Shown here one piece after another: positions 7,735-50,830 of a DNA stretch of 64,000 bases; position 1 is the first letter of the stretch; every line of letters starts with the position of its first letter. The translations under genes were made by a program, and so were the position numbers. Below the pieces are notes generated by a model. That model searched no databases, had not been told where the DNA came from, and was given only the letters and a program-made list of their open reading frames with translations. Location: NCBI GenBank assembly GCA_041738235.1, contig JBGSQF010000018.1:1404-65403 (forward strand), given 5' to 3'. The stretch comes from Minisyncoccia bacterium. Its GTDB lineage: Bacteria > Patescibacteriota > Minisyncoccia > Moranbacterales > GCA-2747515.

Positions 7735-7751
7735 TTTTTTGTATAAGAGTT

Positions 7752-7913: not shown

Positions 7914-7918
7914 TCTCT

Positions 7919-8505: not shown

Positions 8506-8527
8506 GGCACCTTGAGGTGCTTTTTTG
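8506..8527 (+). terminator. intrinsic terminator
   Basis: GGCACC-ttga-GGTGC stem followed by TTTTTT. Confidence 0.4.
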
Positions 8528-8586
8528 TTTTTGTTAAAAATGGCTCAGATATAAGTAAAATGTTAATTTTATAATCTATATAGAGC

Positions 8587-30572: not shown

Positions 30573-30647
30573 TCCGGCGTGGCGCAGCGGTAGCGCAGGG
30601 GACTGTTAATCCCTTGGTCGTAGGTTCGAATCCTACCGCCGGAGCCA
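30573..30647 (+). tRNA. tRNA-Asn (anticodon GTT)
   Basis: Acceptor stem TCCGGCG/CGCCGGA. D-arm GCGC-AGCGGTA-GCGC. Anticodon stem GGGGA/TCCCT with loop CTGTTAA. T-arm GTAGG-TTCGAAT-CCTAC. CCA is encoded. Confidence 0.8.
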
Positions 30648-30756
30648 AGAAAAAACCACCTCCATTTTGGGGGTGGTTTTTCTTTGCTCTCCGTCGAGTA
30701 GGATGAGAAGTTTATACTCGGTAGCGTAGCGGACGGGTAAATCCTACCGCCGGAGC
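30640..30756. repeat. left 117-bp direct repeat (attL-like)
   Basis: Identical to 50075..50191. It begins in the last 8 nt of tRNA-Asn and ends with ATCCTACCGCCGGAGC, a copy of the tRNA 3' end. Confidence 0.85.
30654..30685 (+). terminator. intrinsic terminator after tRNA-Asn (inside the left direct repeat)
   Basis: AACCACCTCC-atttt-GGGGGTGGTT stem followed by TTTTTCTTT. Confidence 0.5.
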
Positions 30757-33184: not shown

Positions 33185-35360
33185 TTTTTACCCCACCCCC
33201 GCTCTCACGATTGTTTTCCGTTTCCTCGTCCCTTCCCGCGCACGGATAGATAAGTATCTTTCTTTTGTCCGAAGGATCGCGCTCTTGTTCCACCAATCCC
33301 GACGCTTCCAAAGGCGGGAGAATTTGTTGCCTGAAACGCCAATCTTCGAGAAAGCGTCCGTGCACTTCTTGATACTTTTTCAAAATCTCGTGCTTCCCAA
33401 GTCCCACGACAACGCTCAAACCCTCGTTTTTCTTTTGGAAGGCGGGGAGGATCACCGTTTTGTACACTTCGTACACGTACGGCGAGAGATTATACTCTTG
33501 GCTTTCGGAAATCGCTCCCCACAAAGAGACGGCTTCCCGCAAATCGTCCCCGTTTGCCGTGAGACAATTTCCGTTTCGTTTGCGAAACCACACGTTAAGG
33601 AGCGCAAACATCCGCACAAAGGCGATAAACCGCGCGATATCTCTCTGATGGCGCGGTTTGAGATGCGCCTTGCCCTCCAAAAAAATCTTTTCGATCTCTT
33701 CGGGAGAAGACAACATAATTTCGCCAATGTGTTCGTTCCGTATCGCCAAAAGGCGATCCATAAGAAGCGACCGCGCTGGATTTTCGTCGAGGATTTTTTG
33801 GTACGCCTCCGGATCGGTCTCGCGCAAAATCTTTTCGTGAATGCCAGCGCGCACCTTTTCGGGATCAGCTTCGGGAGAAAGCAAAAGAAATCGCGTCCCT
33901 TCCTGTTCGTCAATGAGAATCCCCGCACTGCAAAAAATGACCGCGGGAAATCCCTTGATAAAAATCGTTTTCGTTCGCATTCCGCTCTTTTGGCTTTTGT
34001 CCGTAATCTTGACTGTCATCTCTTTTTTGTCGTGAGAAAGAAGCGGGCGAAGCCGTTCCAAAAGTTGCGTATGCGGTTGATCGAGAAAAATCAAAATCTT
34101 TCGCGACAAATCGATCTCGATTCCGCCCCGTTCCTTGTTGTACACGCCCGCATCGTGAAAAAACGAAGTGGGGGAGCAATACCCGATTTCGATCACGTCC
34201 TCCGGGGGAAACAATTTTGCAATCTCCGTCGGGATGTAACTCTTTCCGGTGGAAGAGGGCGCATTCAAACTGATGTTTATTTGCGCCGATTCCGTATACG
34301 CCGAGAGTTCGCACAAAAACGTCGCCAATTTGTTGGAGTCGTCCTTTTTGATAGTAAGTCCCAACACGTCGAGAAGTTCTTTTGAGCCGATCGGAGAAAA
34401 TCGCGAAACGTCAATCGGCTCTTTTCCCCCCGCAAACGTCGCGAGGGCACGTAATTCCTCCGCGCTTCCTCCGCAGTCACCGAAATAGTTTGAGATGTCG
34501 CTTCCCTTGGGGAGCACCTCCGGCAACTCCGCCCGAAAGACGCTCGTTTGCGGAAGTTCTTCCGACAAGAGCGCAATCACCCGATCTGTGCCTTTCTGTC
34601 CCGCCTCGTCATTGTCAAAACACACCACAACGCGGGAAACCCGTACGAACGCCTCCGCCCATTCCCGCTTAAACGTACCCGCGCCCGCCGTCGAAGTCAC
34701 GGCGCAAAATCCCTTTTGGGACAACATCATCTGATCGAATTCCCCCTCGCAAATCCACACCTCGCCCGCCTCCGCGATGGACTCCTTTCCGTACAAAGAC
34801 GCTCCCGATCCGGTGGGATAAAACTTGTACTTGTCGGGATTCGTTTCTTCCTCCGCGGGGTCTCGGCGCAATTTGAGAAACGCCCATCCCCCCGTATCGT
34901 TGGGAACGGGAATCGTGATCCAATTTTTCCGGTAGAAACGGCCATACCCGATCTTTTGCTTCTCGATTGTTTCGTCCGTGATGCCCCGACCGTTGAGATA
35001 CGTCCGAATTCGCTCCGGTACACTCTCCGCGCACCGTTCCGCCACGCTCCCGTCGAATCGCGCGGGACTTTTGCGTGTCGTGACCTTCTCGCCCCCGATC
35101 GGACTCCGCGCCACGTCGCCGGGCGTATCTCCCAACGCCTTGGCAAGGGTAAAGATATTTCCCGACGCATTGCATTTCTTGCAATGATATTGCCCTGTCT
35201 CGCTTGAAAGATATAAATGCCCCTCTGCGCCCCGACTGTCCTTGTCGCATGCGCCGAACAAACACTTTGCGATAAGTTCCCCGTTGCTTTCTTTGAATGC
35301 GATACCTTTTTTCTCCAAATACTCCCGAATCGTTATCGTTTCCATACTGTTTTTTTGCAT
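33105..35360 (-). CDS. primase with P-loop NTPase domain (CHC2 Zn finger + TOPRIM + Walker-A domain)
   Basis: 751 aa. Zn finger CLFGAC...HCKKCNASGN. TOPRIM VWICEGEFDQMMLSQKGF and VVCFDNDEAGQKG. Downstream Walker A LNAPSSTGKSY. Confidence 0.7.
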   Translation of the reverse strand: MQKNSMETITIREYLEKKGIAFKESNGELIAKCLFGACDKDSRGAEGHLYLSSETGQYHCKKCNASGNIFTLAKALGDTPGDVARSPIGGEKVTTRKSPARFDGSVAERCAESVPERIRTYLNGRGITDETIEKQKIGYGRFYRKNWITIPVPNDTGGWAFLKLRRDPAEEETNPDKYKFYPTGSGASLYGKESIAEAGEVWICEGEFDQMMLSQKGFCAVTSTAGAGTFKREWAEAFVRVSRVVVCFDNDEAGQKGTDRVIALLSEELPQTSVFRAELPEVLPKGSDISNYFGDCGGSAEELRALATFAGGKEPIDVSRFSPIGSKELLDVLGLTIKKDDSNKLATFLCELSAYTESAQINISLNAPSSTGKSYIPTEIAKLFPPEDVIEIGYCSPTSFFHDAGVYNKERGGIEIDLSRKILIFLDQPHTQLLERLRPLLSHDKKEMTVKITDKSQKSGMRTKTIFIKGFPAVIFCSAGILIDEQEGTRFLLLSPEADPEKVRAGIHEKILRETDPEAYQKILDENPARSLLMDRLLAIRNEHIGEIMLSSPEEIEKIFLEGKAHLKPRHQRDIARFIAFVRMFALLNVWFRKRNGNCLTANGDDLREAVSLWGAISESQEYNLSPYVYEVYKTVILPAFQKKNEGLSVVVGLGKHEILKKYQEVHGRFLEDWRFRQQILPPLEASGLVEQERDPSDKRKILIYPCAGRDEETENNRESGGGVKNETKPDQLFEDALDIFGDSVGNGINL

Positions 35361-36251: not shown

Positions 36252-37250
36252 TTAGGGGAGAGCGTCGGGACTGATTCGGTATTCGTTTATTTTTCCGTTT
36301 TTCCTTGTTTGTATGATTTCCAGTCCGATCTTTTCGGCTATGGCGCAAATGATCGAACGTTCGTTTGAGACGGTTTTTTGCTCGACACCCATTCTTTGCG
36401 CCAGATCTTTTCTTGTATGCCAAACATTCCTACTCCCTTTTCCTTCGTGATGCAGAAAAGCGAGAATATTATGAGCCGTTTCGGTTATTTCTTCCTTTTG
36501 TCGGTATATTCCAACCGCGTCCCCGTCCCACAAAATCGCGCGCTTTTCAAGCGACGCAAACCCGTTTTTTCCGAGAGGAATCCCGTCCTTTTCCGATGGC
36601 CGTCCCGTATGACCGAAAAACTTTCGGAAAAGAGTTTTGTCGAAAATCGCATTTTTATTTTTGGAAAGAATTTTGTCGAGTGCAATGCACAAGACATCCC
36701 CATCGATTTTTCGCGCCGGAGCAAAAGGCAAGAAAATGACCGCTCTTTCACTTGATTGTTGGGCGAGATCGATTGCCTTGCTTGTGTCAAACGCGTCCGC
36801 GTTTCGCGCGAAGAAAAACATGCGCGATTCCCCCGCAAGAAAATGCGACCCGAGCGACCATGTCTTTTCCGAAATCGAAGCCCGACCGCCGATTCCGAGA
36901 TCGCCCAAAAGACGCAAGAGCAATGCCTCGACATCGATCCGCCACTCTTTCGTCTCATTTTTCTCGATAAATTGAAACCGTGTCGAACCGCACTCGTTGC
37001 AAAAAATACACAATTTTCTAAATTTTTCCAATATCTCGCATGGCGTATGGCAATTATGGCACGGCGCATTTTGTGCCTTTCTCTCATACAGAATTCTTGC
37101 TTTAATCGCCCGCGCAATTTCTTTCTCAAAAGGAAAAACGGACTCCCAAGATAAAGAGGGAGATTCGTTTTCAACTGCGAGAAGTATTTTATGCATCAAA
37201 TCCTTCATCGATTCCCGTGTCTTTAAGAATACGGCACGCTTTTTTCTCAA
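36252..37250 (-). CDS. hypothetical protein (Cys cluster; possible C-terminal HTH)
   Basis: 332 aa. A CHNCHTPC...CIFCNECG cluster. The C-terminus KDLAQRMGVEQKTVSNERSIICAIAEKIG is HTH-like. Confidence 0.4.
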   Translation of the reverse strand: MRKKRAVFLKTRESMKDLMHKILLAVENESPSLSWESVFPFEKEIARAIKARILYERKAQNAPCHNCHTPCEILEKFRKLCIFCNECGSTRFQFIEKNETKEWRIDVEALLLRLLGDLGIGGRASISEKTWSLGSHFLAGESRMFFFARNADAFDTSKAIDLAQQSSERAVIFLPFAPARKIDGDVLCIALDKILSKNKNAIFDKTLFRKFFGHTGRPSEKDGIPLGKNGFASLEKRAILWDGDAVGIYRQKEEITETAHNILAFLHHEGKGSRNVWHTRKDLAQRMGVEQKTVSNERSIICAIAEKIGLEIIQTRKNGKINEYRISPDALP

Positions 37251-38379
37251 ACTCGTCGATCATGCCGAGGTCGCATTTATCGACCCAATCAATGAAGAAA
37301 GAAATCGCTTTGATTCCCCCCTTTGCCTCTTGGCTTTTGAAGCGAAACGAGAAACACGCGCGGTCTATGTAAATTTCTTTATTATTGAGAGCCTTTTGCA
37401 ATCCCAAAGAGTGAGCCATTGTTTTGATGCCATCCGCCCCTGTACTTTTTTTGTCGTTTGGAGGCATGGAGAGAACAACCCTTTTTCCCGTGTTGGTATA
37501 CCGCAAATGAAGCGACCGTAACAACCACGAATCCAAATCGGGAACATTGTCCGCGTTTATTTCGAAATCGTTTTTCATAATAAGGCGCAAATTGTGTTTC
37601 GGGCGCGCTTTCTCGAGAGGGATGCCGAACACCGTTTCGAGGAACACGTTCAGATATTCGTCCCGTGCTTGCCATGATCCTTTTGCTTTGACGTGCAACT
37701 CATTTTCTTTGGGGAGATAGAGAAAATAGATTGCGTCGAGCGCGCGAAAGATCGCCAAGCGGTCCGGCTTGCCACTCTTGTCCATTTGCGTGCACACCTG
37801 CGGATGATCGTCGAACGAAATCGTCGCGCAGGAGTCCTCTTCTATTTTTCGTACATCCACCCAGCATGTTTTGCCTCTTCCTTCTCCTTGGAACATTGAT
37901 TGAAACGCTTCTTTTAAGATTGTTTTTTTGCTTTCCATTATTGATATTGTCGTTTTTGGAACGGGATATCGTTTCCATCCTGAAAGGTCTTGAAACTCCA
38001 AAATCGCCATCGCTTCTTCGAAAACGTCTTCCCTTTCGAGATAATAAAAAAGCGCGCGGTCGCGCATGCTGTAATTGAGACATCTCGAGTCGTCAACGGG
38101 AATGTTGAAATCGCGAATAATGCCTTGAATAGTGGCTACGCCCCGATAATTGCCGAGTATGTCCACTGCAGTAAGTCCGTCCTCCGCTTTTTTTCGGTCA
38201 TCTTCGTCAAGGGAATTGAAAAAATCAAGGATTCTTTCGGAAATAAGTTTTTTTTCTTTTTTATTGGTGACCCTTGGAACATTTGAAGGAAATCCGGTTA
38301 TTTTTCTTGAATCGAAAAAACGCTTGAGAAGATCTGTTTCCTTGACGGAATGAAAAAATACGGGAGGAACAAACGCCAT
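37189..38379 (-). CDS. hypothetical protein
   Basis: 396 aa. No family recognised. Confidence 0.4.
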   Translation of the reverse strand: MAFVPPVFFHSVKETDLLKRFFDSRKITGFPSNVPRVTNKKEKKLISERILDFFNSLDEDDRKKAEDGLTAVDILGNYRGVATIQGIIRDFNIPVDDSRCLNYSMRDRALFYYLEREDVFEEAMAILEFQDLSGWKRYPVPKTTISIMESKKTILKEAFQSMFQGEGRGKTCWVDVRKIEEDSCATISFDDHPQVCTQMDKSGKPDRLAIFRALDAIYFLYLPKENELHVKAKGSWQARDEYLNVFLETVFGIPLEKARPKHNLRLIMKNDFEINADNVPDLDSWLLRSLHLRYTNTGKRVVLSMPPNDKKSTGADGIKTMAHSLGLQKALNNKEIYIDRACFSFRFKSQEAKGGIKAISFFIDWVDKCDLGMIDEFEKKACRILKDTGIDEGFDA

Positions 38380-38672: not shown

Positions 38673-40643
38673 ATGAATATCATCGAATTGCTCCCAAAGG
38701 TTGTTTCCGAAGGAAAAAGAGAAGCCAATCGAACACTGGAATCACTTTCCGATTCGACAAGGCTCATGCTCCAGACCAACGAACTTGTCATTCCGTCGCG
38801 CGATTCCAATTATCACGATTTATTTTCCGAGCTTTCGAAAGCGGGTCAATTGGAGATAAAAACCGAAAACCTTTCTGATGCATCGTGGAAAAATCGTCTT
38901 GTCTATGGGGACAATTTGCTCGTGATGCAGGCGCTTCTCGCGGGAGACCAGGAAACAGGGATGCCGAGTATGCGGGGGCAAATTGATCTCATCTACATTG
39001 ACCCGCCATTTGACAGCAAGGCGGACTACCGAACAAAGGTAGAAATCCCAGGGGCAACACTCGACCAAAAGCCGACCGTCCTCGAACAATTTGCGTATGC
39101 CGATACGTGGGCGGGAGAGGTTAGTGGACAGCAGGTCAAGGGGACACTCGCATATCTGAAGTATCTCTATCCGCGCCTGGTGTTGATGCGGGAACTTCTC
39201 TCGGACAAGGGGTCAATCTATGTGCATCTCGATTGGCACGTCGGGCATTATGTGAAAATTATATTAGATGATATTTTTGGAAAGGATAATTTTAGGAATG
39301 AAATTATTTGGAAGTACACAGGAAGTAGAGCTCCGGATAAGGATTTTGCGAAAAAACACGACACTATATTTAGGTATTCAAAATCAGAAAATCGTAAGTT
39401 TTTCCCAATCTACACTGCGTATTCTGAGGGAACTATAGCGAGATTCAATCAAGAAGATGAGGACGGAAGATTCAAAATTACCTATCGCGACGGCAAGGAG
39501 TACAAAACTTATATGAAGGAGGGTAAGCCCCTTGAGGATGTTTGGATTATTGAACCTGAAAATTTGGATATTGAAGATATTTCAATATTGATGAAGAATG
39601 CAAAAGAAAATACAGACTACAATACACAGAAGCCATCCTTACTAATTGAGAGACTGATAAAATCAGCAACTGAAGAAGGGGATGTTGTCGCAGACTTCTT
39701 TATGGGCTCTGGGACAACTATGGCTGTTGCTGAGAGTTTGAAGAGAAAATGGATTGCTTCTGATATAGGAAAACCTGCAATAATGGTTTCTCGCAAGCGT
39801 TTGATTGATCAGGGGGCAAAGCCGTTTCTCGCGCAGTCCATCGGGGACTACCAGAAAGAACAGCTTCTCCAGACGATGGGGAGCAAATACCGCATCGGCG
39901 ATTTGGCGCAGGTGGTACTGGGACTTTTTGGCGGTTTGCCGTTTCCCGCGGAAGACAATCCGAACAAAAACCTTGGGTATCTCCCGCGCACCAAGCACCT
40001 CATTTACGTCGATTCGCCGAACAAGCTTTGTGGACTCTCGACGCTGAAACGGGCTCAGCAATTTCGGGAATCGCATCTCGGCGGATGGGACAAGGTGGTT
40101 GTGCTCGCGTGGAATTTCGTCTCTGATATCGGACAAATTATCGGGAGCCTGGGGGACAACCGTTTGGAAGTTCTCGTCATTCCTCCGGACTTGCTGGATA
40201 AGCTTTCGAGCAAATCGAACTATGACAAACTCGTAAAATCCGGTGCGGTGCGTTTTTCTTCTTTGCAGTATTTGACCATAAAAGAACCGACCGTTTCCGA
40301 TATCGATGGCGAAGACGAGATTTGTGTCGAGCTGGACAATTATATGCTCCTCTCTCCCGATTCTTTACCTCTTGACGATGCGAACAAAGCGAAATTGCAG
40401 GAAGTTGTTGCAAAAAATCCGCTCGACCTTATCGAATATTGGAGTGTCGATCCCGATTATGACGGAGAGATTTTTCGCAGTGTCTGGCAGGATTATCGGG
40501 GAAATACCGAAAACGACGACGATCCGCTTCGCGTGGTGAAAACAGCGACGATTCGCGTCCCGAAAAAAGAGGGTGTGCGAAAGATATGCGTCAAGGCGGT
40601 GGATGTTTTCGGTTGGGAATCGGAGGTGGTGCGGGAAGTATAA
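38673..40643 (+). CDS. mod: Type III restriction-modification Mod-like DNA methyltransferase (beta-class N6A/N4C)
   Basis: 656 aa. Motif [11 protein letters not shown] lies near the N-terminus and motif [10 protein letters not shown] is distal, with a middle target-recognition region. A DEAH-box Res-like gene follows. Confidence 0.7.
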
Positions 40644-40654
40644 TTTTGGAGCGT

Positions 40655-42295
40655 ATGACATTTGACGAATTGAAACAATTTATTGCCCATCGCGAATCCG
40701 AAAGGCTTGAACTTAAGGAATGGAGGAGTTCATTTTCGATTCTCGGTGAGGGAAAGTTTGAAAATCGGAAATGTTTGCTTGGGTACTGCGTTGCGCTTGG
40801 CAATGAGGGTGGAGGATACGTGCTTATCGGGGTGAAGAATGACGGAACGATTGTTGGTACGAGCGCGGTGTTGCCGGATGATGTAAAGAAGCAAATATAT
40901 GACAGAACCGGACAAAAAATAGAAATCGAAGAAATTTTTGATGGGAGTAAACGAGTGCTTGCGGTGAGTATTCCTTCGAGACCAATGGGAACTCCTCTAA
41001 AATTTGCCGAAGTGCCTTTGATGAGGGTAGGTGATTCGCTGGAACCAATGAGCGACGCGGAGCAAACGCGGATTCTTCTTGAGGGGCAGGATGATTTTTC
41101 GGTGCGGATATGCGAAGCGTCGTCGATGGAAAGTGTCGATGGGGATGCCTTACGGAAATTGCGTGAACTGCGTGTCGAGAAGCAATCGGATATTGATGGG
41201 GCGGTCGAAGGGCTTTCCGACGAGCGTTTTTTGACAGATATTGCTCTGATGCGTAACGGGAAACTGACATACGCGGGAGTTATTCTGATCGCGAAAAAAG
41301 AGTTTCTCGATTGGAATTTCGGAGATGTTGAAATTTGTTTCGAGTACCGCAATCGTTTTGGTGACGAACAGTCAAGAAATGATCGCGTGAATTACCGCGA
41401 GCCGTTCGTACTGGCATACGAGAAGATCTGGGAAAAGGTGGTCTCCCGTCAACAAACGCATTCTTTCGTTTCAGGCTTGCTTCGTGAGGAGATTCCGGCG
41501 TTCGATCGGGATGTTTTTCGGGAGGCGTTATTTAATGCCGTGTGTCATCGAGATTATTCTCAAAAAGGATCGGTTGTTATTATCCAATCGCCCGAAGGTA
41601 TAGAAATTACGAACCCGGGAGGATTCCCGCCGGGGGTTACACAAGAAAACATCATTGATGTCGCAAGCACCCCGCGCAATCGATTATTGGCGGAGAGGTT
41701 TGAGAAGATTTTACCGGGTGTCGAACGGTCCGGTTGGGGCGTGGACAGGATTTTTCGTTATACGATTCAACAGGGAAAAGGTCGTCCCGATTATTCGGGA
41801 AGTACCGGGTATTTTGTCCGTCTTTTTATTCCGGCGATACTCAAGGATGCGCAATTCGTTCAGTATCTCAAAAAGATTGCCGATAGAAAACAAAAGTTGC
41901 TGTCGATCGAAGACCTTCTCTTATTGGAAAAAATACGCGCCGGGGAAAAAACCGGAATCACGTTGAAAACAGTCGGGCATCTTCTGGAGGAAGGATTTAT
42001 AGAACTGTATGGAAAAACACGCGGGGCGCGGTACGTGCTTTCGCACAGGTATTATGCCGATACGGGGAAACTGGGTGAACGAACGCGAAGAATTGGTCTT
42101 TCACGGGATAAGCGCAAGGAGTTAATCTTGGAGCACATACGAAAGCATGGGGAGGGGAGGATGTCGGAATTTATGCAGATCTTTCCGGAATTGAAACGAT
42201 ATGAGATTGGTAATATGCTTATGGAGCTCAAAAAAGATAATAAGATTGAAAAATCCGGGGTGACGGCAAATGCATTATGGAAAATAGTTGTATAA
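40655..42295 (+). CDS. AlbA_2 (Schlafen-like) + HATPase_c_4 domain protein
   Basis: N-terminus ESERLELKEW...YCVALGNEGGGYVLIGVKNDGTIVG is AlbA_2-like. The C-terminal region NAVCHRDYSQKGSVVIIQSPEGIEITNPGG is HATPase_c_4-like. Start taken at Met 40655. Confidence 0.5.
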   Translation: MTFDELKQFIAHRESERLELKEWRSSFSILGEGKFENRKCLLGYCVALGNEGGGYVLIGVKNDGTIVGTSAVLPDDVKKQIYDRTGQKIEIEEIFDGSKRVLAVSIPSRPMGTPLKFAEVPLMRVGDSLEPMSDAEQTRILLEGQDDFSVRICEASSMESVDGDALRKLRELRVEKQSDIDGAVEGLSDERFLTDIALMRNGKLTYAGVILIAKKEFLDWNFGDVEICFEYRNRFGDEQSRNDRVNYREPFVLAYEKIWEKVVSRQQTHSFVSGLLREEIPAFDRDVFREALFNAVCHRDYSQKGSVVIIQSPEGIEITNPGGFPPGVTQENIIDVASTPRNRLLAERFEKILPGVERSGWGVDRIFRYTIQQGKGRPDYSGSTGYFVRLFIPAILKDAQFVQYLKKIADRKQKLLSIEDLLLLEKIRAGEKTGITLKTVGHLLEEGFIELYGKTRGARYVLSHRYYADTGKLGERTRRIGLSRDKRKELILEHIRKHGEGRMSEFMQIFPELKRYEIGNMLMELKKDNKIEKSGVTANALWKIVV

Positions 42296-42388: not shown

Positions 42389-45274
42389 TTGAATATGGCG
42401 AATTCATCACCTCTCCAATTTGCAAAGGATATTTCCGCAAAGGCCAATAATGCCTGGCTTTCCGGTGAGTATCTTGAGCGGGTTACCCCAACGACAAGAC
42501 AGCTTTTGACGTATTGGTTTGGCGACCAATACTGCGAAAATCGAGGATTGAATTTTCACGAGGGACAACGACAGGCAATTCTGAATATCATTTATTTGCA
42601 CGGGGTGCTCAAGACAAAAAATATCTTCGACGCGTATGAGCAAATTGCGCCGGATCTTTTGCTTCGAAGTGAAGGGGGACTTGCCGAAATATCGAAAACA
42701 AAATACAGTCATCCGAAATATGCGATAAAGATGGCAACGGGAACGGGCAAGACCTGGGTGCTTTCGGCAACACTGATTTGGCAGTATCTCAATGCCAAAC
42801 ATGAAGAGGGGAACTTTACGAAAAACTTTCTTATAGTCGCTCCCGGGCTTATAGTATACGAACGACTTCTTGATGCATTCCTTGGTAAAGAGCGCGAGGG
42901 GAGTGATGGAAGGGATTTTGAATCTTCCGATATTTTTCATACACAGGATCTTTTTTTGCCGGAATCGTACCGAGAAGAGATTTTTGGTTTTTTCAAATCA
43001 TCGGTCGTTGTCAAAGAAGAAATCGGCAGTAAGGTTACCGGTGACGGCCTGGTCGCCGTGACGAACTGGCACCTCCTCGCGGGCGTTGCCGAAGATGCCT
43101 CGGAAGAAATTGAATCGCCCGGCGAAATCGACCCTGTGAGCATGATGAAATCAATTCTCCCGACTCGCCCAAGCGCCAGTGCGGGCAATGATTTGAATGT
43201 GCTTGATAATTCGTATGGACAGGGAAAAGAACTCGCATATCTTCGTGATCTGCCTGATTTGATGGTATTTAATGATGAGGCACATCATTTGGCGTCGAAC
43301 AAAAAAGAAGAAAAGCATTGGCAGAAAAGTTTGTCGCATATTGCTGAAACAAAAGGTGAACATTTCGTTCAAGTAGATTTTTCAGCCACTCCGTACGACC
43401 AGATAGGAAAGAATAAAGTATATTTTCCTCATATTATCGTTGATTTTGAGCTGAAGACAGCGATTCAAAAGGGGTATGTGAAGACGCTCGTTCTTGACCG
43501 AAGGAAGGAAATTGCATCGATGGAGCTTGATTTTAGAGCAGAACGAGATGAGAGTGGAAAGGTTATCGGACTTTCCGAAGGACAGCGTGTGATGCTTCGT
43601 GCGGGTTTGAAAAAACTCCAAATTCTTGAGGCGGATTTTGAGAAGATTGCGCCAGAACGAGACAAGTACCCGAAGATGATGATTGTTTGTGAAGATACGA
43701 AGGTGGCGCCATTTGTCAGTGAATTTCTGGTGCACGAAGGATTGTCAGAGGGGGATGTACTTGAAATTCACTCTGATAAAAAAGGAAATGTAACAAAGGA
43801 AGCGTGGTTGGAAATTAAAAATAAACTGTTTCATTTGGATGAGCACAAGTCTCCAAAAGTTATTGTTTCGGTGCTTATGCTCCGCGAAGGTTTTGATGTG
43901 AATAATATCTGCGTCATTGTTCCGCTCCGTTCCTCGCAGGCTCCTATCCTTCTTGAGCAGACAATTGGGCGGGGGTTGCGTCAAATGTGGCGTGAGTCGG
44001 AGTTTAAGGAAATGAAAGAAGAGAATAGGAGGAGAATGCTTGTGGAAAAAACGAGTCCGCAGAATTACTTTGATATTTTGAGTATTATTGAACATCCATC
44101 TTTTGTCGGTTTTTACGATGAGCTCATGCAGGATGATATGGCTGGCATGGATGACACGGATATTATTGAGGGAGAGGATGTTACTGGGGATATTATCTCG
44201 GTTGGTTTGCGACCCGGATATGAGCAATACGATTTTATGTTTCCTGTAATAGTGAGCGAGGCGGAAGAAGTCATAAAAGAAAAGAAACTCTCTGTTGATG
44301 ATCTTAGCCCCTTTCAGAATGCGAGCTTCGAACAACTTAAGAAGATGGTGAAAGCGGGAGAACAATTTGTATCGCAAGAGATGACGAAAGGCACTCGATT
44401 CGGAGATTATAGTGTGAGTGGTGGAATAATGACCGCTACAAGTTATAACGAGTTTGTTTCCAGGCTCGTCAACCGTGTGACGGTGTTACTCTCGGAACCT
44501 GTTTCCGGACGACATCTCAAGGAGCAAACAAAATTTCCGGCAATCCAAGTAAAACTTCCGGAGCTTGCCGGTTTGGTGGACGGGTATATTCGAAGAAGAC
44601 TCTTTAATCAGGAGGTTGATCCATTTATTGATGAAAATTGGCGAATTTTAATGGTCAATTTGGTTGCAGACCATATCATCCGTGAGGTATCAACTGCCAT
44701 CCTAAAGCTTCAAGAAACGGAGTCAATAAGTGAGCCGGAAGTGATAGAGCGTAAGGTTTCTGAAGTAGCATCACTTCGGATGCGCGAGAGTTATTCATTT
44801 CCGACAAGTAAATCTGTCTATGAGAGGCTCCCATATCCGTCTCGAAATGGTGGTCTGGAGAAAGGTTTTATCGAATATGCGGATTCAGATGCAACAGTAG
44901 AGTCTTTTGTAAAGCTCCTTGTAGAAAAGCATTATTTCATTCGTTTTCGATATCTGAAAGAGGATGGGCTTATGGCGCAATATTACCCTGATTTTTTAGT
45001 GAGATGCAATAATGGAAAAATCTATATTGTAGAAACGAAAGCGCAAGATCAAATCAGTCACCCGAACGTACAGAAAAAACAGATTTCCGCACTCAATTGG
45101 ATTGACCGGGTAAACGCCCTTCCTTCTGAGATGCGAAGGAATGCTACTTGGGAGTATGTACTTATCGGAGACACATTCTTCAATGATTGGAGAAATAAGG
45201 GTGCATCTATTGTTGAAATGCTGGAGTTTGCAAAATTGAGAGCGGTACAGAGAGGCCAATCAAAATTGTTATAG
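42389..45274 (+). CDS. res: Type III restriction enzyme Res subunit (SF2 helicase + PD-(D/E)xK nuclease)
   Basis: 961 aa. Walker A MATGTGKTWV and a DEAH box VFNDEAHHL. The C-terminus YYPDFLV...IYIVETKAQD looks like a PD..ExK nuclease motif. Confidence 0.7.
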   Translation: MNMANSSPLQFAKDISAKANNAWLSGEYLERVTPTTRQLLTYWFGDQYCENRGLNFHEGQRQAILNIIYLHGVLKTKNIFDAYEQIAPDLLLRSEGGLAEISKTKYSHPKYAIKMATGTGKTWVLSATLIWQYLNAKHEEGNFTKNFLIVAPGLIVYERLLDAFLGKEREGSDGRDFESSDIFHTQDLFLPESYREEIFGFFKSSVVVKEEIGSKVTGDGLVAVTNWHLLAGVAEDASEEIESPGEIDPVSMMKSILPTRPSASAGNDLNVLDNSYGQGKELAYLRDLPDLMVFNDEAHHLASNKKEEKHWQKSLSHIAETKGEHFVQVDFSATPYDQIGKNKVYFPHIIVDFELKTAIQKGYVKTLVLDRRKEIASMELDFRAERDESGKVIGLSEGQRVMLRAGLKKLQILEADFEKIAPERDKYPKMMIVCEDTKVAPFVSEFLVHEGLSEGDVLEIHSDKKGNVTKEAWLEIKNKLFHLDEHKSPKVIVSVLMLREGFDVNNICVIVPLRSSQAPILLEQTIGRGLRQMWRESEFKEMKEENRRRMLVEKTSPQNYFDILSIIEHPSFVGFYDELMQDDMAGMDDTDIIEGEDVTGDIISVGLRPGYEQYDFMFPVIVSEAEEVIKEKKLSVDDLSPFQNASFEQLKKMVKAGEQFVSQEMTKGTRFGDYSVSGGIMTATSYNEFVSRLVNRVTVLLSEPVSGRHLKEQTKFPAIQVKLPELAGLVDGYIRRRLFNQEVDPFIDENWRILMVNLVADHIIREVSTAILKLQETESISEPEVIERKVSEVASLRMRESYSFPTSKSVYERLPYPSRNGGLEKGFIEYADSDATVESFVKLLVEKHYFIRFRYLKEDGLMAQYYPDFLVRCNNGKIYIVETKAQDQISHPNVQKKQISALNWIDRVNALPSEMRRNATWEYVLIGDTFFNDWRNKGASIVEMLEFAKLRAVQRGQSKLL

Positions 45275-45389: not shown

Positions 45390-45893
45390 ATGCTCAAGAG
45401 TTTAATTCCTAATCTTAAAAATATGGATATTCAAACAAAAGTTGGAGTTATAGTAACAAACGAGAGGGGGGATATTCTTCTTATTAAGGAAAAGCTGGAG
45501 AAGAAACCGGTCTCTCTTTGGAATATCATTAAGGGGTCATATCAGGGAGGAGAGAGTGTCATGCAGGCAGCAATAAGAGAATGCACGGAAGAGGCTTCTG
45601 TGGACGTGGATCTTTTGTTTTCTTTGGGAACATATATTGCAGAAGAGCCGGGTAAAATCAGGGTGCAGTTTAATTTTTTAGCTCGATCTAAATCTGACAT
45701 CATTGCTCTGGCGTCGGAAAAAGATCAACAGTCAAGAGGTGAGGCGATCGAAGATGCTCGCTGGCTTACAAGGGAAGATGTAGAGAAAATTGGAAAAGAA
45801 GAATTTGCTTCATTAAGAGCATATCAGCTTGTTCAGGACTGGTTGTCTGGAAAAGAGTTTCCTATAGATTCTGTTCAACAGGTTGCCATGTAG
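45390..45893 (+). CDS. NUDIX hydrolase
   Basis: NUDIX box GGESVMQAAIRECTEEASV. Confidence 0.5.
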   Translation: MLKSLIPNLKNMDIQTKVGVIVTNERGDILLIKEKLEKKPVSLWNIIKGSYQGGESVMQAAIRECTEEASVDVDLLFSLGTYIAEEPGKIRVQFNFLARSKSDIIALASEKDQQSRGEAIEDARWLTREDVEKIGKEEFASLRAYQLVQDWLSGKEFPIDSVQQVAM

Positions 45894-45961
45894 AAGAAGA
45901 CAAATAACCAAAAGAAAAAGAGTCATGTTGATGACTCTTTTTAATTATGCCCTCCTAAATA

Positions 45962-46741
45962 TTAGGGACGGCTTATTCTGAGTATGAGTGTTTTGTGAAG
46001 CCTGTTTCCGTTGGCATCTTGTAGGAAGGAGTATCCGGGGTACATCCTCTTGATCCAAGGGATGTTTTCCTCGGTCTTTCCTCCTGGTCGGATGGTTTGG
46101 CTGTGCCTCGAAATAACCTCCATTCGAAGTCCAAGGGACTGGATTAGCTCGGCTAGCGGCACCCTTCCCAAGTCTTGGTCAATGCCAAGAAAGTCGAAAC
46201 ACAATAGAATGAGCTGCCCATGTCGCGCAAGCAGTCTCTGACTATGTCGGATAATGCCTTTGATATACGCTCTTCCATCCTCGCTTCCTCCATAGTCATG
46301 CGGATGTCCTCTTGTGGGCATGGGCATTTGGGGGGGGTTGCTGACGATCGTGTCGAAGGATTTCCGTACTAGATCCTTAGGAACAAGATCACAGCACACC
46401 CAGGAGATACCCCGTGCTTTATTTGATGCAGTTCTTGCCCAGGACAGGGAGCTCTGATCAATGTCTGTCGCGGTTATATGGGTGGCTCCAAGCGCGATCA
46501 AGCAGTTCGCCAGAAATCCCGATTCTCCCGTTCCGATGTCTAGTGCGCGACTTCCAATGTCTAATTTCTTTAGTTCCTGAGCGATTAGGAATCCGCTTTT
46601 TGGAACGTAGCCACCGTTCCTTATATTTATGCGTAACCCAAGCTCTTTGGACGTAAGGAGAAAGGGACTCCCTACAAATTGGTGGAGAATAAAGCCCTCA
46701 GAGGGAACGGACTTGGCGTACAAGTTCGTTGAACCGCTCAT
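45962..46741 (-). CDS. class I SAM-dependent methyltransferase (HemK/N6-MTase-like, NPPQ motif)
   Basis: Motif I ALDIGTGESGFLA. Motif IV IVSNPPQMP. Start taken at the internal Met (46741). Confidence 0.5.
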   Translation of the reverse strand: MSGSTNLYAKSVPSEGFILHQFVGSPFLLTSKELGLRINIRNGGYVPKSGFLIAQELKKLDIGSRALDIGTGESGFLANCLIALGATHITATDIDQSSLSWARTASNKARGISWVCCDLVPKDLVRKSFDTIVSNPPQMPMPTRGHPHDYGGSEDGRAYIKGIIRHSQRLLARHGQLILLCFDFLGIDQDLGRVPLAELIQSLGLRMEVISRHSQTIRPGGKTEENIPWIKRMYPGYSFLQDANGNRLHKTLILRISRP

Positions 46742-47582
46742 ATTCTCCAAGGCCTTTGATTGCCATAACGGTTGAGGAGTAGCCATAGGGACCTCTTTTG
46801 GCGCTAATTAGGTCGAGAGGCTCCATGGGGAAGAAATATGTACTGTGGATACGAAACGGTGTTGCAATGAAGACCATCAGATCTTCTGCCCACCGTAAGT
46901 TATCCATGGAGTAACAAGGTCTTTCCCCATAGAGGGTTTTTAGGAGGGCAAGCTTTCTTTTTGACGCAATGAGGTTGGTCGGCATGTATCCGGATATATC
47001 ATCCTTGACAATATCCTTAAACAAATCCCGACTCTCTTGCCTAGTTATAAAGCATGAGAACTCCTCCCGGGAATAGTTTCTGGCATAGCGAGCGAACGCG
47101 GATGCACTGATAGGGCAATCCCTTATTTCAAGATCGCGTTCAAAATCTACAAGCCAGATAGTGTCTTCATGCTCGCTCCAGATCATGTTTCTTGGGGCAA
47201 AGTCTCCCCATAGAAAACCATGCGTCCTGAATGTGTGGAGTATGTCCCCAATCAAATGAAGCATGGAGTGTCTTTCTGTTCCAATAGACTCTCTGAGCAT
47301 TGCCTCGAGGTTTTTGCCGGTATGTAGGAGTGTGGAAAGCGCCCCCCATGTCTCATCCCACCCACATATCTCTACAACCTGCACACGAATGGTACCATGT
47401 GGCGCAAACTCGATCTCCATAGGATGCTTATTGAGGTGTTCGTGGGCAGAAAGAATATTCCTATATTCCTTGCCACATGTTGATTTCTTGACGGTCATCC
47501 TACCGTCAGGTGTAACCGATATTTCAATCCGATTAGAATCGAATGATAGGACATTGGGCATGGTTTTCTCCTGCCGGTGCAA
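46698..47582 (-). CDS. protein-kinase-like fold phosphotransferase (APH/Kdo-kinase-like)
   Basis: Catalytic-loop-like GFLWGDFAPRNMIW and a DFG-equivalent WLVDFERD. Confidence 0.45.
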   Translation of the reverse strand: MHRQEKTMPNVLSFDSNRIEISVTPDGRMTVKKSTCGKEYRNILSAHEHLNKHPMEIEFAPHGTIRVQVVEICGWDETWGALSTLLHTGKNLEAMLRESIGTERHSMLHLIGDILHTFRTHGFLWGDFAPRNMIWSEHEDTIWLVDFERDLEIRDCPISASAFARYARNYSREEFSCFITRQESRDLFKDIVKDDISGYMPTNLIASKRKLALLKTLYGERPCYSMDNLRWAEDLMVFIATPFRIHSTYFFPMEPLDLISAKRGPYGYSSTVMAIKGLGEYERFNELVRQVRSL

Positions 47583-47587
47583 TGAAG

Positions 47588-48463
47588 TTACAGGGCATAT
47601 CCCAATTTTCTGTACGCCTCAGCAAGGTCTTTCTGTGCAAAAAGGTCTTTTTCTTGTTGAGTAAGACCATCTTGCCAGGTGATGTCTTGACGTATTTCTT
47701 GATTGGAATCGTACATCATGTGGTTTCCCATGAGGAGATGACCCTTATTCCTCTTAAACTCCAACATAGCAGGATCAAAGCGGATGTCGATAAAGTCGCA
47801 TATCCGCGATAATTCTCCAGCTACATCTTTGCAAAGATCCTCGTATCGGACAAGCAATACGTTTTCTTGCAGGGTCATTTCTGCAGCCTGTCTTGCAAAA
47901 GACAAGAGGATTCCCATTTTGTCTTTTACTGGTCGAGGAACCCCTTTTCTCTCCCCAGCATTCCTATTGCTAAATGAAATCCCCCTTGGATCTCGAGTAA
48001 GCAGTAGGATTTTCCAACCATTTCTAGATAGTAGTTGTTCGGCTATCGTTAAGTATTTTGAGTTTTCAACGATAACTCGCGTCCCAAAGACTTCTTGGGC
48101 AACTGACGAGATCACCTCAAGTCCTAAACAGCATTGCTTGAGGACTTGCTCCAACATGGGCAAGCTTGGTTGTTCAGCGGATAGGCTGAGCTGGTGCCGG
48201 ATCTTTCCTGGCTCTGCCAGAACATCAAGCATGCCACATGCTTGATGTATGGCAAGAATTTCGTCTGGGAAGTAGGACAGTTTTCTTTGTATGGAGTACA
48301 GTACTTCGCATCCAACAGTGCCACAGCAACATCTTGAAGCTGAAGCATCAATCATCGACCAATAGGCGGATTCGCCCATATGGGTTACGTTTTTATGCGC
48401 ACCAAGCATCATGCCAAGGAGTGTTGACCCAGACCTTGGGAGTGTTGCTATGTAGGCTTTCAT
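47588..48463 (-). CDS. sulfotransferase-family protein
   Basis: N-terminal 5'-PSB-like motif ATLPRSGSTLL. Confidence 0.55.
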   Translation of the reverse strand: MKAYIATLPRSGSTLLGMMLGAHKNVTHMGESAYWSMIDASASRCCCGTVGCEVLYSIQRKLSYFPDEILAIHQACGMLDVLAEPGKIRHQLSLSAEQPSLPMLEQVLKQCCLGLEVISSVAQEVFGTRVIVENSKYLTIAEQLLSRNGWKILLLTRDPRGISFSNRNAGERKGVPRPVKDKMGILLSFARQAAEMTLQENVLLVRYEDLCKDVAGELSRICDFIDIRFDPAMLEFKRNKGHLLMGNHMMYDSNQEIRQDITWQDGLTQQEKDLFAQKDLAEAYRKLGYAL

Positions 48464-48630
48464 CGAGTTTAACCTCTTGATAGATTGTAAAAGAACAGCT
48501 GTGAATAATACTAACTATTGTGGCAGTTGTCAATAGTGGGCTCTTGCAAAATTTACCATTTTATGCTAATTGTTTCTTACAGTTCTTTTAAGCCAATCCA
48601 TCAAACCCAATATGTGCGAGGTTCTGTTTC

Positions 48631-49905
48631 ATGAAGATCTCTTTTGGTCTCGATTTCGGCACCACCAACTCGGTCCTGGCGATAGCACGGAGTAGCGGCG
48701 TAACAATCGCCGATATCAATCCGAACGGCCAGCCGACCAGTACGCTCAAGTCAGTCCTTTTTTTTGACGAAGAGGGAGGGGTTGATATCGGCCAAGAAGC
48801 CATTGAGCAATACATCTCTTACGGTGGTGCATATGGCCGATTCATGCAGTCCATCAAGGCCTTCCTGCCGAACAGGGGCTTTACCGAAACGTACGTCTAT
48901 AAGAAACGCTATGAGATTGAGGATCTCGTTGCGCTCATCCTGAAAGCGATCAAACACCGTGGCGAGCTCCAGGTCAGGCATGTCGTAGACACGGTATTTT
49001 TGGGACGCCCGGTAGTTTTTTCGGACGATCCAGAGCTTGACCTTCTTGCGGAAGAGCGGTTGCGAACGGCGGCTTTGCGTTCGGGGTTTACGAACGTGCA
49101 TTTTGTGTACGAGCCGATCGCGGCAACCCTTGCCTACGAATCCCGTCTCCCGGAGGGAAAGGAACGCCTAGTATTCATGGGGGATTTTGGAGGGGGCACA
49201 TCGGACTTTGTAGTCATGCGCCTTCGTGGCGGTAAACGTGACCCGAAAGAAAGCCGCGATAACGATATTCTAGCCACCGGCGGTGTGTACGTTGCGGGGG
49301 ATGCCTTTGATGCCTCCATTATGTGGCACAAGCTGACCAAGTATTTTGGAAAGGACGCCAAGACCCGCGGAATGTCGAATCAAATTCTCGATACCCCGAC
49401 TTGGATTTTCCGCACCTTGTGTCAATGGCATATGATCCCGCAGCTCCGCGATCGAAAAACGCTGAGCACGATCCGGTCGCTTATCGGGGTGACGGAGGAT
49501 GATCGGATGGCGCTGAGCAGGTTACAGGCGTTTATCGTCGAGAATCTCGGATACATGCTGTTCCGAGAGATCGAGCGGGCAAAGCGTGGACTTTCCGAAA
49601 GCGAGTCCGAAGCCATCGGCTTTTCCGAGAAGGATATCGAAATCTTGGAAGCCATTACGCGAGAGGAATTTGAGGAAATGGCGGACGATCGCTTCCGGGA
49701 GATAAGCGCTTGTGTGGACGAGACGCTGTCCAGATCTGGTGTCGGGTATGGAGACATCGATGCAGTACTTCTAACCGGAGGATCATCGTTCATCCCAAGA
49801 ATCAGAAGGATTTTCTCGGATAGATTTGGGGAGGAAAAAATCCTGCCCATAGACGCCTTCACGAGCGTGGCCTACGGTCTCGGTCTGAGCGCAATGAAGT
49901 ACTAA
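48631..49905 (+). CDS. Hsp70/actin-superfamily ATPase (NBD only; YegD-like)
   Basis: Phosphate-1 MKISFGLDFGTTNSVLA, GGGTSDFVVMR, and phosphate-2/adenosine motif LLTGGSSFIPRIRRIF. 424 aa with no substrate-binding domain. Confidence 0.6.
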   Translation: MKISFGLDFGTTNSVLAIARSSGVTIADINPNGQPTSTLKSVLFFDEEGGVDIGQEAIEQYISYGGAYGRFMQSIKAFLPNRGFTETYVYKKRYEIEDLVALILKAIKHRGELQVRHVVDTVFLGRPVVFSDDPELDLLAEERLRTAALRSGFTNVHFVYEPIAATLAYESRLPEGKERLVFMGDFGGGTSDFVVMRLRGGKRDPKESRDNDILATGGVYVAGDAFDASIMWHKLTKYFGKDAKTRGMSNQILDTPTWIFRTLCQWHMIPQLRDRKTLSTIRSLIGVTEDDRMALSRLQAFIVENLGYMLFREIERAKRGLSESESEAIGFSEKDIEILEAITREEFEEMADDRFREISACVDETLSRSGVGYGDIDAVLLTGGSSFIPRIRRIFSDRFGEEKILPIDAFTSVAYGLGLSAMKY

Positions 49906-50074: not shown

Positions 50075-50191
50075 GTCCAGCATTCGGAGCCAAGAAAAAA
50101 CCACCTCCATTTTGGGGGTGGTTTTTCTTTGCTCTCCGTCGAGTAGGATGAGAAGTTTATACTCGGTAGCGTAGCGGACGGGTAAATCCTA
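50075..50191. repeat. right 117-bp direct repeat (attR-like)
   Basis: Identical to 30640..30756. It carries the same terminator hairpin and the tRNA 3'-end-like core. Confidence 0.85.
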
Positions 50192-50296
50192 CCGCCGGAG
50201 CTAAGATAAAAGAGGCTAAGATAAACATCTTTTTTGTTACTCGCAATGGATGTTAGAACCTGATATAATGAATGAAAATTATTTTGTAGTTTTTTT

Positions 50297-50830
50297 ATGA
50301 ATCACATCCAAGATTGGGAGGAGCTCTCTCGAGAAACAATTTTTGAGAAGTACAGAAGAGGTATTGAGAAAGTTGTTTTTCGTCTTCCTGATAATTCCGA
50401 ACGAGATTTTTATCTCAAGAAGGAAGACAGTCCTATTTGTGTTTTTTCCTTGACTGAGAAAAATGAAGTCATTCTCGCCAAGCAGTACCGACCCGGCCCG
50501 AAGAAGGTGTTGCTGGAGCTTCCAGGTGGGGGAATAGAAAAAGGCGAAACTCCAGAAGATGCTATCACAAGGGAGCTCCTTGAAGAAACCGGCTATATAG
50601 GAAACGTTGAAAGAGTTACGCGTGCCTACGAATGCGGATACTCACCAATGCATCGATATTGCTTTGTGGCTACGAACTGTAAAAAGATTTCAGAACCGAG
50701 GCTTGATGACGGGGAGTTTATTGAAGTCATTTTGATGCCACTTCCCCAATTTCGTGAGCACCTTAGGAGCGGTGAACTGACAGATATTGAAGTCGGCTAT
50801 CTTGGTCTTGATTTCTTGGGATTACTTTGA
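50297..50830 (+). CDS. NUDIX hydrolase
   Basis: NUDIX box GGGIEKGETPEDAITRELLEETGY. Confidence 0.6.
   Translation: MNHIQDWEELSRETIFEKYRRGIEKVVFRLPDNSERDFYLKKEDSPICVFSLTEKNEVILAKQYRPGPKKVLLELPGGGIEKGETPEDAITRELLEETGYIGNVERVTRAYECGYSPMHRYCFVATNCKKISEPRLDDGEFIEVILMPLPQFREHLRSGELTDIEVGYLGLDFLGLL

Follow-up and report, generated by a model that had tools for sequence, protein, structure and literature searches.

A conserved phosphotransferase–methyltransferase module with sulfotransferase, NUDIX and Hsp70-type partners on a mobile island of a Minisyncoccia bacterium

What might a sulfotransferase, a kinase-like protein, a methyltransferase and an Hsp70-type ATPase be doing side by side in a bacterial genome? 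This question is raised by a 64,000-nucleotide stretch of DNA, hereafter the window, from a Minisyncoccia bacterium (GTDB lineage Bacteria; Patescibacteriota; Minisyncoccia; Moranbacterales; GCA-2747515; GenBank assembly GCA_041738235.1, contig JBGSQF010000018.1, forward-strand positions 1,404 to 65,403). An original prediction, made from the sequence alone, described three tightly packed and probably co-transcribed minus-strand genes for a sulfotransferase (ST), a protein-kinase-like phosphotransferase (PKL) and an S-adenosylmethionine (SAM)-dependent methyltransferase (MTase), which face a divergently transcribed gene for the nucleotide-binding domain (NBD) of an Hsp70-like protein. All four open reading frames (ORFs) lie where they had been placed and are intact, with their catalytic motifs kept. 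The set of four is real, but the prediction overlooked a NUDIX hydrolase gene (45390-45893) that is a more constant partner than the ST gene. The features of the resulting five-gene module are given below in window positions.

45390..45893, plus strand: NUDIX hydrolase, 167 amino acids (aa); fifth module gene, convergent with the MTase gene; Pfam NUDIX 1.5e-16
45915..45942, minus strand: hairpin terminator separating the convergent NUDIX and MTase genes; 12-bp stem, then a T run
45962..46741, minus strand: HemK-like class I SAM methyltransferase (MTase), 259 aa; alternative ATG at 46786; Pfam MTS 4e-09
46698..47561, minus strand: minimal protein-kinase-like phosphotransferase (PKL), 287 aa; the ORF reaches TTG 47582
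47588..48463, minus strand: sulfotransferase (ST) of the type that uses 3'-phosphoadenosine 5'-phosphosulfate (PAPS), 291 aa; Pfam PF13469 (Sulfotransfer_3) 1.4e-12 and PF00685 (Sulfotransfer_1) 2e-11
48505..48533, minus strand: predicted sigma-70-type promoter of the ST-PKL-MTase operon, TTGACA-17-TATTAT, 11/12 consensus positions
48631..49905, plus strand: YegD-like Hsp70 NBD lacking a substrate-binding domain, 424 aa; Pfam HSP70 1.1e-29; divergent from the operon

The ST, PKL and MTase genes form one predicted minus-strand operon and are co-transcribed and translationally coupled. This claim is sound because the genes are tightly packed, a promoter lies upstream of ST and a terminator follows MTase. 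The ST and PKL genes are separated by 26 nt, the PKL and MTase genes overlap by 44 nt, and the promoter sits in the 167-bp intergenic region between the divergent ST and Hsp70 genes, all of which agrees with the arrangement first proposed. The true start of PKL is probably ATG 47561 and not TTG 47582, since all homologues are approximately 287 aa long. An Rfam scan at the gathering threshold of the window and five other loci revealed only tRNAs and no riboswitch.

The same combination of genes recurs well outside the window. Approximately 30 non-redundant PKL loci were gathered from contig look-ups, species-representative genomes and JGI metagenomes, and their flanks were read; the counts of loci that follow refer to this set. 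The PKL and MTase families are both very rare, and about equally so: among 5.8 billion proteins, a single-sequence search gives 37 PKL clusters and a profile search 88, and the MTase family forms 57. The MTase gene lies directly 3' of the PKL gene in every locus that has an intact PKL and enough downstream sequence (27/27), and the lone exception to this order (L020) carries a truncated PKL. A NUDIX gene adjoins the module in about 21 loci, an ST gene lies directly upstream of PKL in 16 (with a decayed ST remnant in L007), and a YegD-like Hsp70 NBD gene adjoins the module in 12. With one gene order repeated at about 30 independent loci, the linkage goes far beyond what chance would give. A lack of co-occurrence elsewhere, which the original prediction had named as evidence that would count against it, was looked for, and the combination was instead found in many unrelated genomes.

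The named hosts include Bdellovibrionales, Candidatus Buchananbacteria, Falkowbacteria, Ryanbacteria and gut or rumen Alphaproteobacteria, and there are also unnamed metagenome-assembled genomes (MAGs). Three architectures can be distinguished: Hsp70 / ST-PKL-MTase / NUDIX in the main clade; NUDIX-PKL-MTase, or PKL-MTase plus Hsp70, in the alphaproteobacterial clade; and Hsp70 / PKL-MTase / NUDIX-PIG-L deacetylase in a third clade. Thus PKL and MTase constitute the invariant core, and ST is an accessory confined to the main clade. The module is real, conserved across phyla, horizontally mobile and self-contained, with five genes. No PKL relatives were found in phage, plasmid or IMG/VR collections. 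The intergenic gaps within the module measure 2-200 bp and hold no conserved small ORF that might be the precursor gene of a ribosomally synthesized and post-translationally modified peptide, and the KEOPS partners Kae1, Cgi121 and Pcc1 are absent from all loci examined. A Cdc48-like AAA protein (L017) and LigA (L018), each encoded 3' of MTase, were rejected as partners since neither is conserved there.

Decayed copies of the module are found at L007, L020 and L031, the last with an IS30-like transposase gene. The contigs of L007 and P0022 (ERZ1426822, ERZ1426612) carry a decaying module in which ST and Hsp70 are reduced to their C-terminal parts; PKL, MTase and NUDIX are intact in these copies, and a tyrosine integrase, a Fic gene and UvrD-like helicases are located nearby.

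In one copy, the three transferases share a reading frame. It came to light, in an exhaustive HMMER search with ST, as a protein of 732 aa (P0172) in which residues 28-325 correspond to ST, residues 341-598 to PKL (33% identity to the window PKL, E=1e-46) and residues 635-726 to the N-terminal part of MTase. On the contig of this protein, L048 (JGI 3300071167, Ga0612020_1615; 6001-8599), ST, PKL and MTase share one stop-free frame, and the remainder of MTase, including TNPPQMP, resumes after a single +1 frameshift located near 8150-8200, before the NPPQ motif. This frameshift might stem from a mistake in the assembly, from a recent mutation or from programmed frameshifting. Fusion in one reading frame, together with a gene order conserved across phyla, indicates that the three transferases act together as one multi-enzyme and one physical unit, and they probably work on one shared substrate. 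A tri-domain fusion also provides a ready single-polypeptide reagent for biochemistry.

To which families do the encoded proteins belong? PKL has five ATP-binding residues that are invariant in the alignment (K26, E32, D120, N125 and D139) and carries the motifs VxK, E, WGDFAPRN and DFER. These features, together with a bilobal fold, place it in the protein-kinase-like superfamily, whose hallmarks are a beta3 lysine, an alphaC glutamate, a catalytic D..N pair and a DFG-type aspartate. The AlphaFold2 model of PKL has a mean confidence (pLDDT) of 91.9 and matches 98 kinase-fold entries of the PDB at E<=1e-3. The resemblance to kinase folds is generic. In geometry, Bud32/PRPK (root-mean-square deviation about 4 Å), the tRNA kinase ArkI and RIO2 fit best, and COQ8 and a corramycin phosphotransferase are also among the matches. 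No Pfam match was found for the window protein, which belongs to no Pfam or NCBIfam family; its NCBIfam matches, Bud32 and Kdo kinase, are both sub-threshold, and the protein falls far short of Bud32 itself (TIGR03724, 19.7 bits versus a cut-off of 125). The aminoglycoside phosphotransferase (APH) model PF01636 gives 13.8 bits for the window protein versus a cut-off of 23.2, and it matches 27/27 family members weakly, with a best value of 6.3e-06. The C-terminal half of PKL is helical, like that of APH-type small-molecule kinases, and an activation-loop region is absent. PKL is a new protein-kinase-like family for which there is no Pfam model. In the copy at L048, the catalytic motif of the kinase is WGEIAPRN, the D being replaced by E.

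The MTase has LDIGTGE as motif I and SNPPQMP as motif IV, the latter followed by HDYGGxDGR. It is a class I SAM-dependent enzyme of the MTS type (PF05175, 36.8 bits versus a cut-off of 23) with a conserved LDIGTGE. The main clade has NPPQ as motif IV and a distant clade has NPPI, so that the aromatic residue of NPPY is replaced in both. A profile search of the PDB gave E. coli HemK/PrmC as the best match (3.7e-11), and RsmC is also among the matches of the MTase. Nevertheless, the protein lacks NPPY and does not qualify as a HemK/PrmC glutamine methyltransferase (TIGR03534, 45.2 bits versus a cut-off of 199), and its NCBIfam scores in general are 45-50 bits versus cut-offs of 162-243. In the AlphaFold2 model (pLDDT 94.7), the N-terminus consists of beta strands, without the helical domain of PrmC, and the best fold matches are the peptide asparagine N-methyltransferase AerE (query TM-score, TMq, 0.59-0.64), HemK2/N6AMT1 and METTL5. 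The MTase is a new clade within the HemK-like group.

ST belongs to the sulfotransferase superfamily (48.8 and 44.2 bits versus Pfam cut-offs of 27 and 22). Its PAPS-binding loops PRSGST and RDPRG, which represent the 5'-PSB and 3'-PB motifs, are invariant in the alignment, as is a cysteine cluster, CxCGxxGC plus two further cysteines, and a basic loop, RKGVPRPVKxK, is conserved. The nearest solved relatives are the CurM/OLS sulfotransferase domains and the tyrosylprotein sulfotransferases TPST1/2 (PDB profile matches of 4e-09 to 1e-05), and the ST clade itself has only 22 representatives at E<=1e-30 in a superfamily of 2617. The module NUDIX protein is a clear member of its family (61 bits versus a PF00293 cut-off of 21.1) with an intact NUDIX box (GX5EX7REXXEE of the consensus GX5EX7REUXEEXGU). 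Main-clade representatives are MutT/DR1025-like, their nearest solved structures being D. radiodurans DR1025, NUDT18 and MTH1, whereas alphaproteobacterial representatives are IDI/YfcD-like and only about 17% identical to those of the main clade. Because the two clades carry non-orthologous subfamilies, NUDIX enzymes were recruited twice, independently.

The Hsp70 gene product comprises an NBD only (PF00012, 103.6 bits, profile positions up to about 370 of 599), and its ATPase motifs DFGTTN, DFGGGT and TGG (phosphate-1, phosphate-2 and adenosine) are invariant, also when compared with E. coli YegD. The best NCBIfam model is YegD (NF008673, 4e-50), although the score of 170.9 bits is well below the cut-off of 331, and identity to E. 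coli YegD is 26% (E=2e-27). Judged from its sequence, the protein is a YegD-like NBD and not a YegD ortholog. It is the most conserved module protein, with 51-74% identity where PKL has 44-50%. In E. coli K-12, yegD adjoins the Ser/Thr kinase gene yegI, pphC and yegL, and the YegD literature gives no function for the protein. The isoelectric points of the module proteins are not consistently basic and give no hint regarding the substrate.

Known systems share some of these components, as the following comparisons reveal. The N5-glutamine methyltransferases of the HemK/PrmC-HemK2 family and AerE, an asparagine N-methyltransferase of RiPP biosynthesis, have in common with the module MTase a class I Rossmann fold, motif I and an NPP-type motif IV followed by GGxDG(R/L). 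HemK/PrmC, however, has NPPY and an N-terminal helical domain, whereas the module MTase has NPPQ or NPPI, has no such domain and is always paired with PKL. The Bud32-Kae1 pair of KEOPS and the yegD-yegI-pphC-yegL cluster of E. coli likewise couple a minimal kinase-like protein to an ATPase of the ASKHA fold. They differ in that the module Hsp70 is not Kae1/TsaD and the module lacks Cgi121, Pcc1, vWA and PP2C components; PKL has no detectable similarity to YegI. The "activating" sulfotransferase domains of CurM/OLS and the tyrosylprotein sulfotransferases (Sulfotransfer_3) share the PAPS loops PRSGSTLL and RDPR with the module ST. Unlike these, the module enzyme is a stand-alone protein of 291 aa with a cysteine cluster and RKGVPRPVKxK, and it has no polyketide synthase, acyl carrier protein or secretory-pathway context.

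Among defense systems, Pgl/BREX type 2 and MADS appear similar on paper, since they bring together a kinase, an N-methyltransferase, an ATPase and a phosphohydrolase, with restriction-modification (R-M) genes nearby in some genomes. The module has no homology to PglW, PglX, PglY or PglZ, however, and only a partial MTase-domain match to mad2. Furthermore, its proteins are three to five times smaller and lack a DNA-recognition domain, and it is located mostly outside defense islands. In the tunicamycin cluster, an N-deacetylase is encoded together with a methyltransferase and a small pyrophosphatase (PMC6965331). The small pyrophosphatase and methyltransferase of tunE/tunM/tunN have counterparts in the module, and a PIG-L-type N-deacetylase is present in one module clade, but this is an analogy only. 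The tun cluster lacks a kinase, an ST and an Hsp70, and the module lacks linked scaffold-building enzymes (radical SAM, glycosyltransferase, epimerase).

The original prediction did not recognize the combination as a described system, and this assessment stands. In PADLOC-DB v2, there is no model for the module and no match for PKL or ST, the MTase matches mad2 only in part (3.9e-14), and Hsp70 and NUDIX give weak single-domain matches to PDC candidates. A literature search on combinations of sulfotransferase, Nudix, Hsp70, kinase, defense and RNA repair found no paper on the module. GTPase-centric conflict systems (PMC7159879) and CoCoNuT Type IV systems (PMC10542128) contain Hsp70-like proteins in compositions unlike that of the module, and the DefensePredictor paper makes no mention of ST, Hsp70 or NUDIX (PMC13092281). 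As a system, the module is new, in that no catalogued system has such a composition.

The genes that surround other copies can provide hints regarding function. Most copies are located among housekeeping genes, for example those for tRNA synthetases, ATP synthase, S15/PNPase and dTTP synthesis. One locus (L025) has three NUDIX genes, an inorganic pyrophosphatase gene and a Ham1 gene directly upstream, and another (L049) places the module beside MiaA/MiaB and a thyA-DHFR-dTMP kinase/dUTPase cluster. At L009 (5777-7442), an adenosine 5'-phosphosulfate (APS) kinase gene and a CysQ-like gene of the inositol-monophosphatase family adjoin the Hsp70 gene of the module. These neighbors are a local set for PAPS supply and for removal of its by-product 3'-phosphoadenosine 5'-phosphate (PAP), and their presence argues that the PAPS chemistry of the module is real. 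In a sub-clade that lacks ST, a gene for a PIG-L/LmbE-type deacetylase overlaps the module NUDIX gene (L031, 4200-5314; L049, 6761-7869). The two deacetylases are 57% identical, and such an enzyme hints at an N-acetyl-aminosugar moiety in the substrate.

Our preferred, tentative reading, to which we would assign a probability of roughly 0.4, is that the module encodes a multi-enzyme from which a small molecule of the nucleotide or nucleotide-sugar type receives phosphate, sulfate and an N-methyl group, with the NUDIX enzyme cutting a diphosphate bond. Its biological role may be metabolite synthesis, detoxification or immunity. Under such a scheme, PKL, ST and MTase would each modify one common substrate, most likely an anionic small molecule such as a nucleotide or a nucleotide-sugar or aminosugar. 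PKL, given its resemblance to APH, Kdo kinase and Bud32, would phosphorylate a hydroxyl group, and the NPP-motif MTase would methylate an amine or amide nitrogen. The sulfotransferase, which carries a basic loop, would take PAPS as donor and sulfate an intermediate that is already anionic. The NUDIX hydrolase might cut a diphosphate bond of the pathway, either freeing the product from a nucleotide carrier or clearing toxic nucleotide-type intermediates. Finally, the YegD-like Hsp70 NBD could be an ATP-driven partner or regulator of PKL, for which Kae1-Bud32 and E. coli yegD-yegI would be precedents.

A small molecule is favored as the substrate because NUDIX enzymes were recruited repeatedly and because accessories such as ST and PIG-L vary between clades, as is the case in tailoring pathways. 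The neighboring genes of nucleotide metabolism, the APH-like character of PKL and the basic loop of ST point in the same direction. Of the candidate roles that had been put forward for the window genes, small-molecule modification is thus the best supported, whereas direct modification of DNA and classical antibiotic resistance are not supported. Several observations weigh against our preference. The nearest characterized relatives of the MTase (HemK/PrmC, HemK2 and AerE) act on proteins or peptides, as do some relatives of ST (TPST), and the best-geometry fold matches of PKL (Bud32/PRPK, ArkI and RIO2) are linked to RNA or translation. The contexts at L025, at L049 and in the PIG-L clade come from few lineages with small genomes, where such neighbors are common. 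In the loci examined, no transporter, glycosyltransferase or scaffold-building enzyme is conserved beside the module. Also, no Hsp70 NBD is known to serve as a partner of small-molecule enzymes.

If a small molecule is indeed the target, the module would represent an unrecognized multi-enzyme that joins phosphoryl, sulfuryl and methyl transfer with a NUDIX enzyme and an orphan Hsp70-type ATPase. It would have spread by horizontal transfer over bacteria of the candidate phyla radiation (CPR), Bdellovibrionales, gut Alphaproteobacteria and other uncultured lineages. The module also provides a testable genomic partner for the YegD-type NBD-only Hsp70 proteins, which have long been without a function, and it could point the way to a sulfated metabolite or a nucleotide modification not seen before.

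The shared target might otherwise be a protein or peptide, an explanation that we consider somewhat unlikely. PKL would then phosphorylate Ser, Thr or Tyr, a TPST-like ST would sulfate Tyr and the MTase would N-methylate Gln or Asn, all on one protein of cellular or invader origin, possibly a translation factor or Hsp70 itself, with the Hsp70 NBD acting as presenter or regulator. The MTase speaks for this possibility both by sequence, its best PDB match being the release-factor glutamine methyltransferase HemK of E. coli (3.7e-11), and by fold, which is closest to AerE and HemK2/N6AMT1. The same is true of the profile matches between ST and TPST1/2, the resemblance of the PKL fold to protein kinases and Bud32, and the position of E. 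coli yegD next to the kinase gene yegI and the phosphatase gene pphC. However, a near-constant NUDIX enzyme, twice recruited from different subfamilies, has no obvious role in protein modification. In the module MTase, Q or I takes the place of the NPPY aromatic side chain that stacks against the target amide, and the N-terminal helical domain of PrmC is missing. Furthermore, PKL lacks an activation-loop region and has weak APH matches in 27/27 members, gaps of <=200 bp leave no space for a precursor peptide, and the Hsp70 protein has no peptide-binding domain.

Modification or repair of tRNA or rRNA must also be considered, and it appears quite unlikely. PKL might transfer phosphate to a ribose hydroxyl in the manner of ArkI, or be an ATPase of the Bud32 type that pairs with an ASKHA protein; m6A or m2G would arise when the MTase methylates a base nitrogen, and the NUDIX enzyme would process a 5' end or a by-product. 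The fold matches of PKL to Bud32/PRPK, ArkI and RIO2 suit this proposal, as do the matches of the MTase to METTL5 and RsmC, the cysteine cluster and basic loop of ST, and the retention of the module in reduced CPR genomes. Its neighbors, moreover, include genes for MiaA/MiaB, SerRS, HisRS, BipA with a DEAD-box helicase, S15/PNPase and SmpB, but translation genes are common neighbors in small genomes and therefore a weak form of context. Sulfation of RNA is not known to occur. No recognizable RNA-binding domain (THUMP, PUA, S4 or KH) occurs in the module proteins, their isoelectric points are not consistently basic, and a PIG-L deacetylase as an accessory does not suit an RNA substrate.

Defense against phages and other mobile genetic elements is a proposal regarding biological role and may overlap with any of the substrate models. 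The module would be a functional analogue of Pgl/BREX or MADS that marks self or attacks the nucleic acids or nucleotides of an invader, and we find this decidedly doubtful. The window copy, it is true, is carried by the island as a direct neighbor of a Type III R-M system and a Schlafen/AlbA gene. R-M or DNA-methylase genes adjoin the module in only two further contexts, making three in all: at L028, an NgoPII endonuclease and a C5 methylase are encoded directly upstream, and at L001, a C5 DNA methylase gene and an M78/HTH region are nearby. Among the loci examined, mod and res occur only at the window locus. The patchy distribution across phyla, the decayed copies (L007, L020 and L031) and the weak partial match of the MTase to MADS mad2 (3.9e-14) would fit defense as well. 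Nonetheless, the defense framing of the original prediction is weak: most copies reside in housekeeping contexts, none is found in phage, plasmid or IMG/VR collections, PADLOC has no model for PKL or ST, no paper on such a system was found, and the module proteins contain neither a sensor domain nor an effector domain, whether nuclease, membrane or of another kind.

A more specific proposal, which we hold to be a long shot, is that the module makes a sulfated, phosphorylated and N-methylated nucleotide or writes such a mark on RNA or DNA. Were this the case, nucleotide or nucleic-acid biology would gain its first example of enzymatic sulfation, and the product may serve as a mark of self, as a toxic analogue of a nucleotide or as a signal in immunity. 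Any of these roles would explain the R-M neighbors of some copies.

A cassette of three independent conjugating enzymes, each capping a toxic compound or antibiotic, is very improbable: although PKL is APH-like with a corramycin phosphotransferase among its fold matches, the window copy resides on a mobile island, and sulfation and methylation are classical detoxification chemistries, the fixed order, translational coupling and triple fusion suggest sequential action on one substrate, no plasmid copies are found, the hosts are CPR bacteria and other uncultured MAGs, and NUDIX and Hsp70 would have no role.

The surroundings of the window copy bear out the earlier placement of the module directly beside a Type III R-M system inside a mobile element, as indicated by mod and res, a pair of direct repeats and a serine recombinase.

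30640..30756, no strand: direct repeat, left copy; perfect 117 nt, starting in the last 8 nt of tRNA-Asn; island boundary
38673-40643: Type III R-M mod, upstream of the module
42389-45274: Type III R-M res, upstream of the module
50085..50201, no strand: direct repeat, right copy; perfect 117 nt, 180 nt past the Hsp70 stop codon; island boundary

The 117-nt repeats enclose a 19.4-kb island at tRNA-Asn (30573-30647), and since the right copy begins 180 nt past the Hsp70 stop codon, the module takes the rightmost position among the cargo of this island. From the tRNA gene onward, a serine recombinase gene comes before a primase/helicase-like gene, and the Type III R-M system lies beyond both. 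The 17-mer AATCCTACCGCCGGAGC, which represents the 3' end of the tRNA and is nested in the repeat, occurs three times (at 30629, 30740 and 50185). The large serine recombinase gene at the left end (30744-32348) encodes the only recombinase of the island, and its last 13 nt lie within the repeat; a repeat of 117 nt is unusually long for an element whose sole recombinase is of this type. The backbone genes of the island encode a Toprim primase/helicase-like protein of 751 aa (33105-35360) and three other proteins (36252-37250, 37189-38379 and 32513-33184), which have no Pfam or PHROG match. These genes could constitute an uncharacterized replication or mobilization module.

Between mod and res, a gene that overlaps mod by 58 nt (40586-42295) encodes a 569-aa protein with Schlafen/AlbA_2 and HATPase_c_4 domains. 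This protein also matches a PHROG "DNA helicase" family (3.4e-33), and it could either regulate the Type III R-M system or be its third component. The res product matches the BPTD_3080 restriction-endonuclease model (2.2e-57) and has a weak C-terminal match to a TnsA-like endonuclease (residues 849-897).

A second NUDIX gene of the NudE/ADP-ribose type is located approximately 100 nt beyond the right repeat (50297-50830), and its product is 17% identical to the module NUDIX. It was rejected as a module gene, being outside the island repeat and having no counterpart at other loci, and its position is probably coincidental. An uncharacterized 530-aa protein encoded downstream in the window and a 530-aa protein encoded upstream of PKL at L024 were compared and are unrelated. 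Elsewhere in the window (15384-18422), a gene encodes a 1012-aa protein with two stretches of the type II/IV secretion ATPase family T2SSE, which is an unusual tandem arrangement of ATPase domains.

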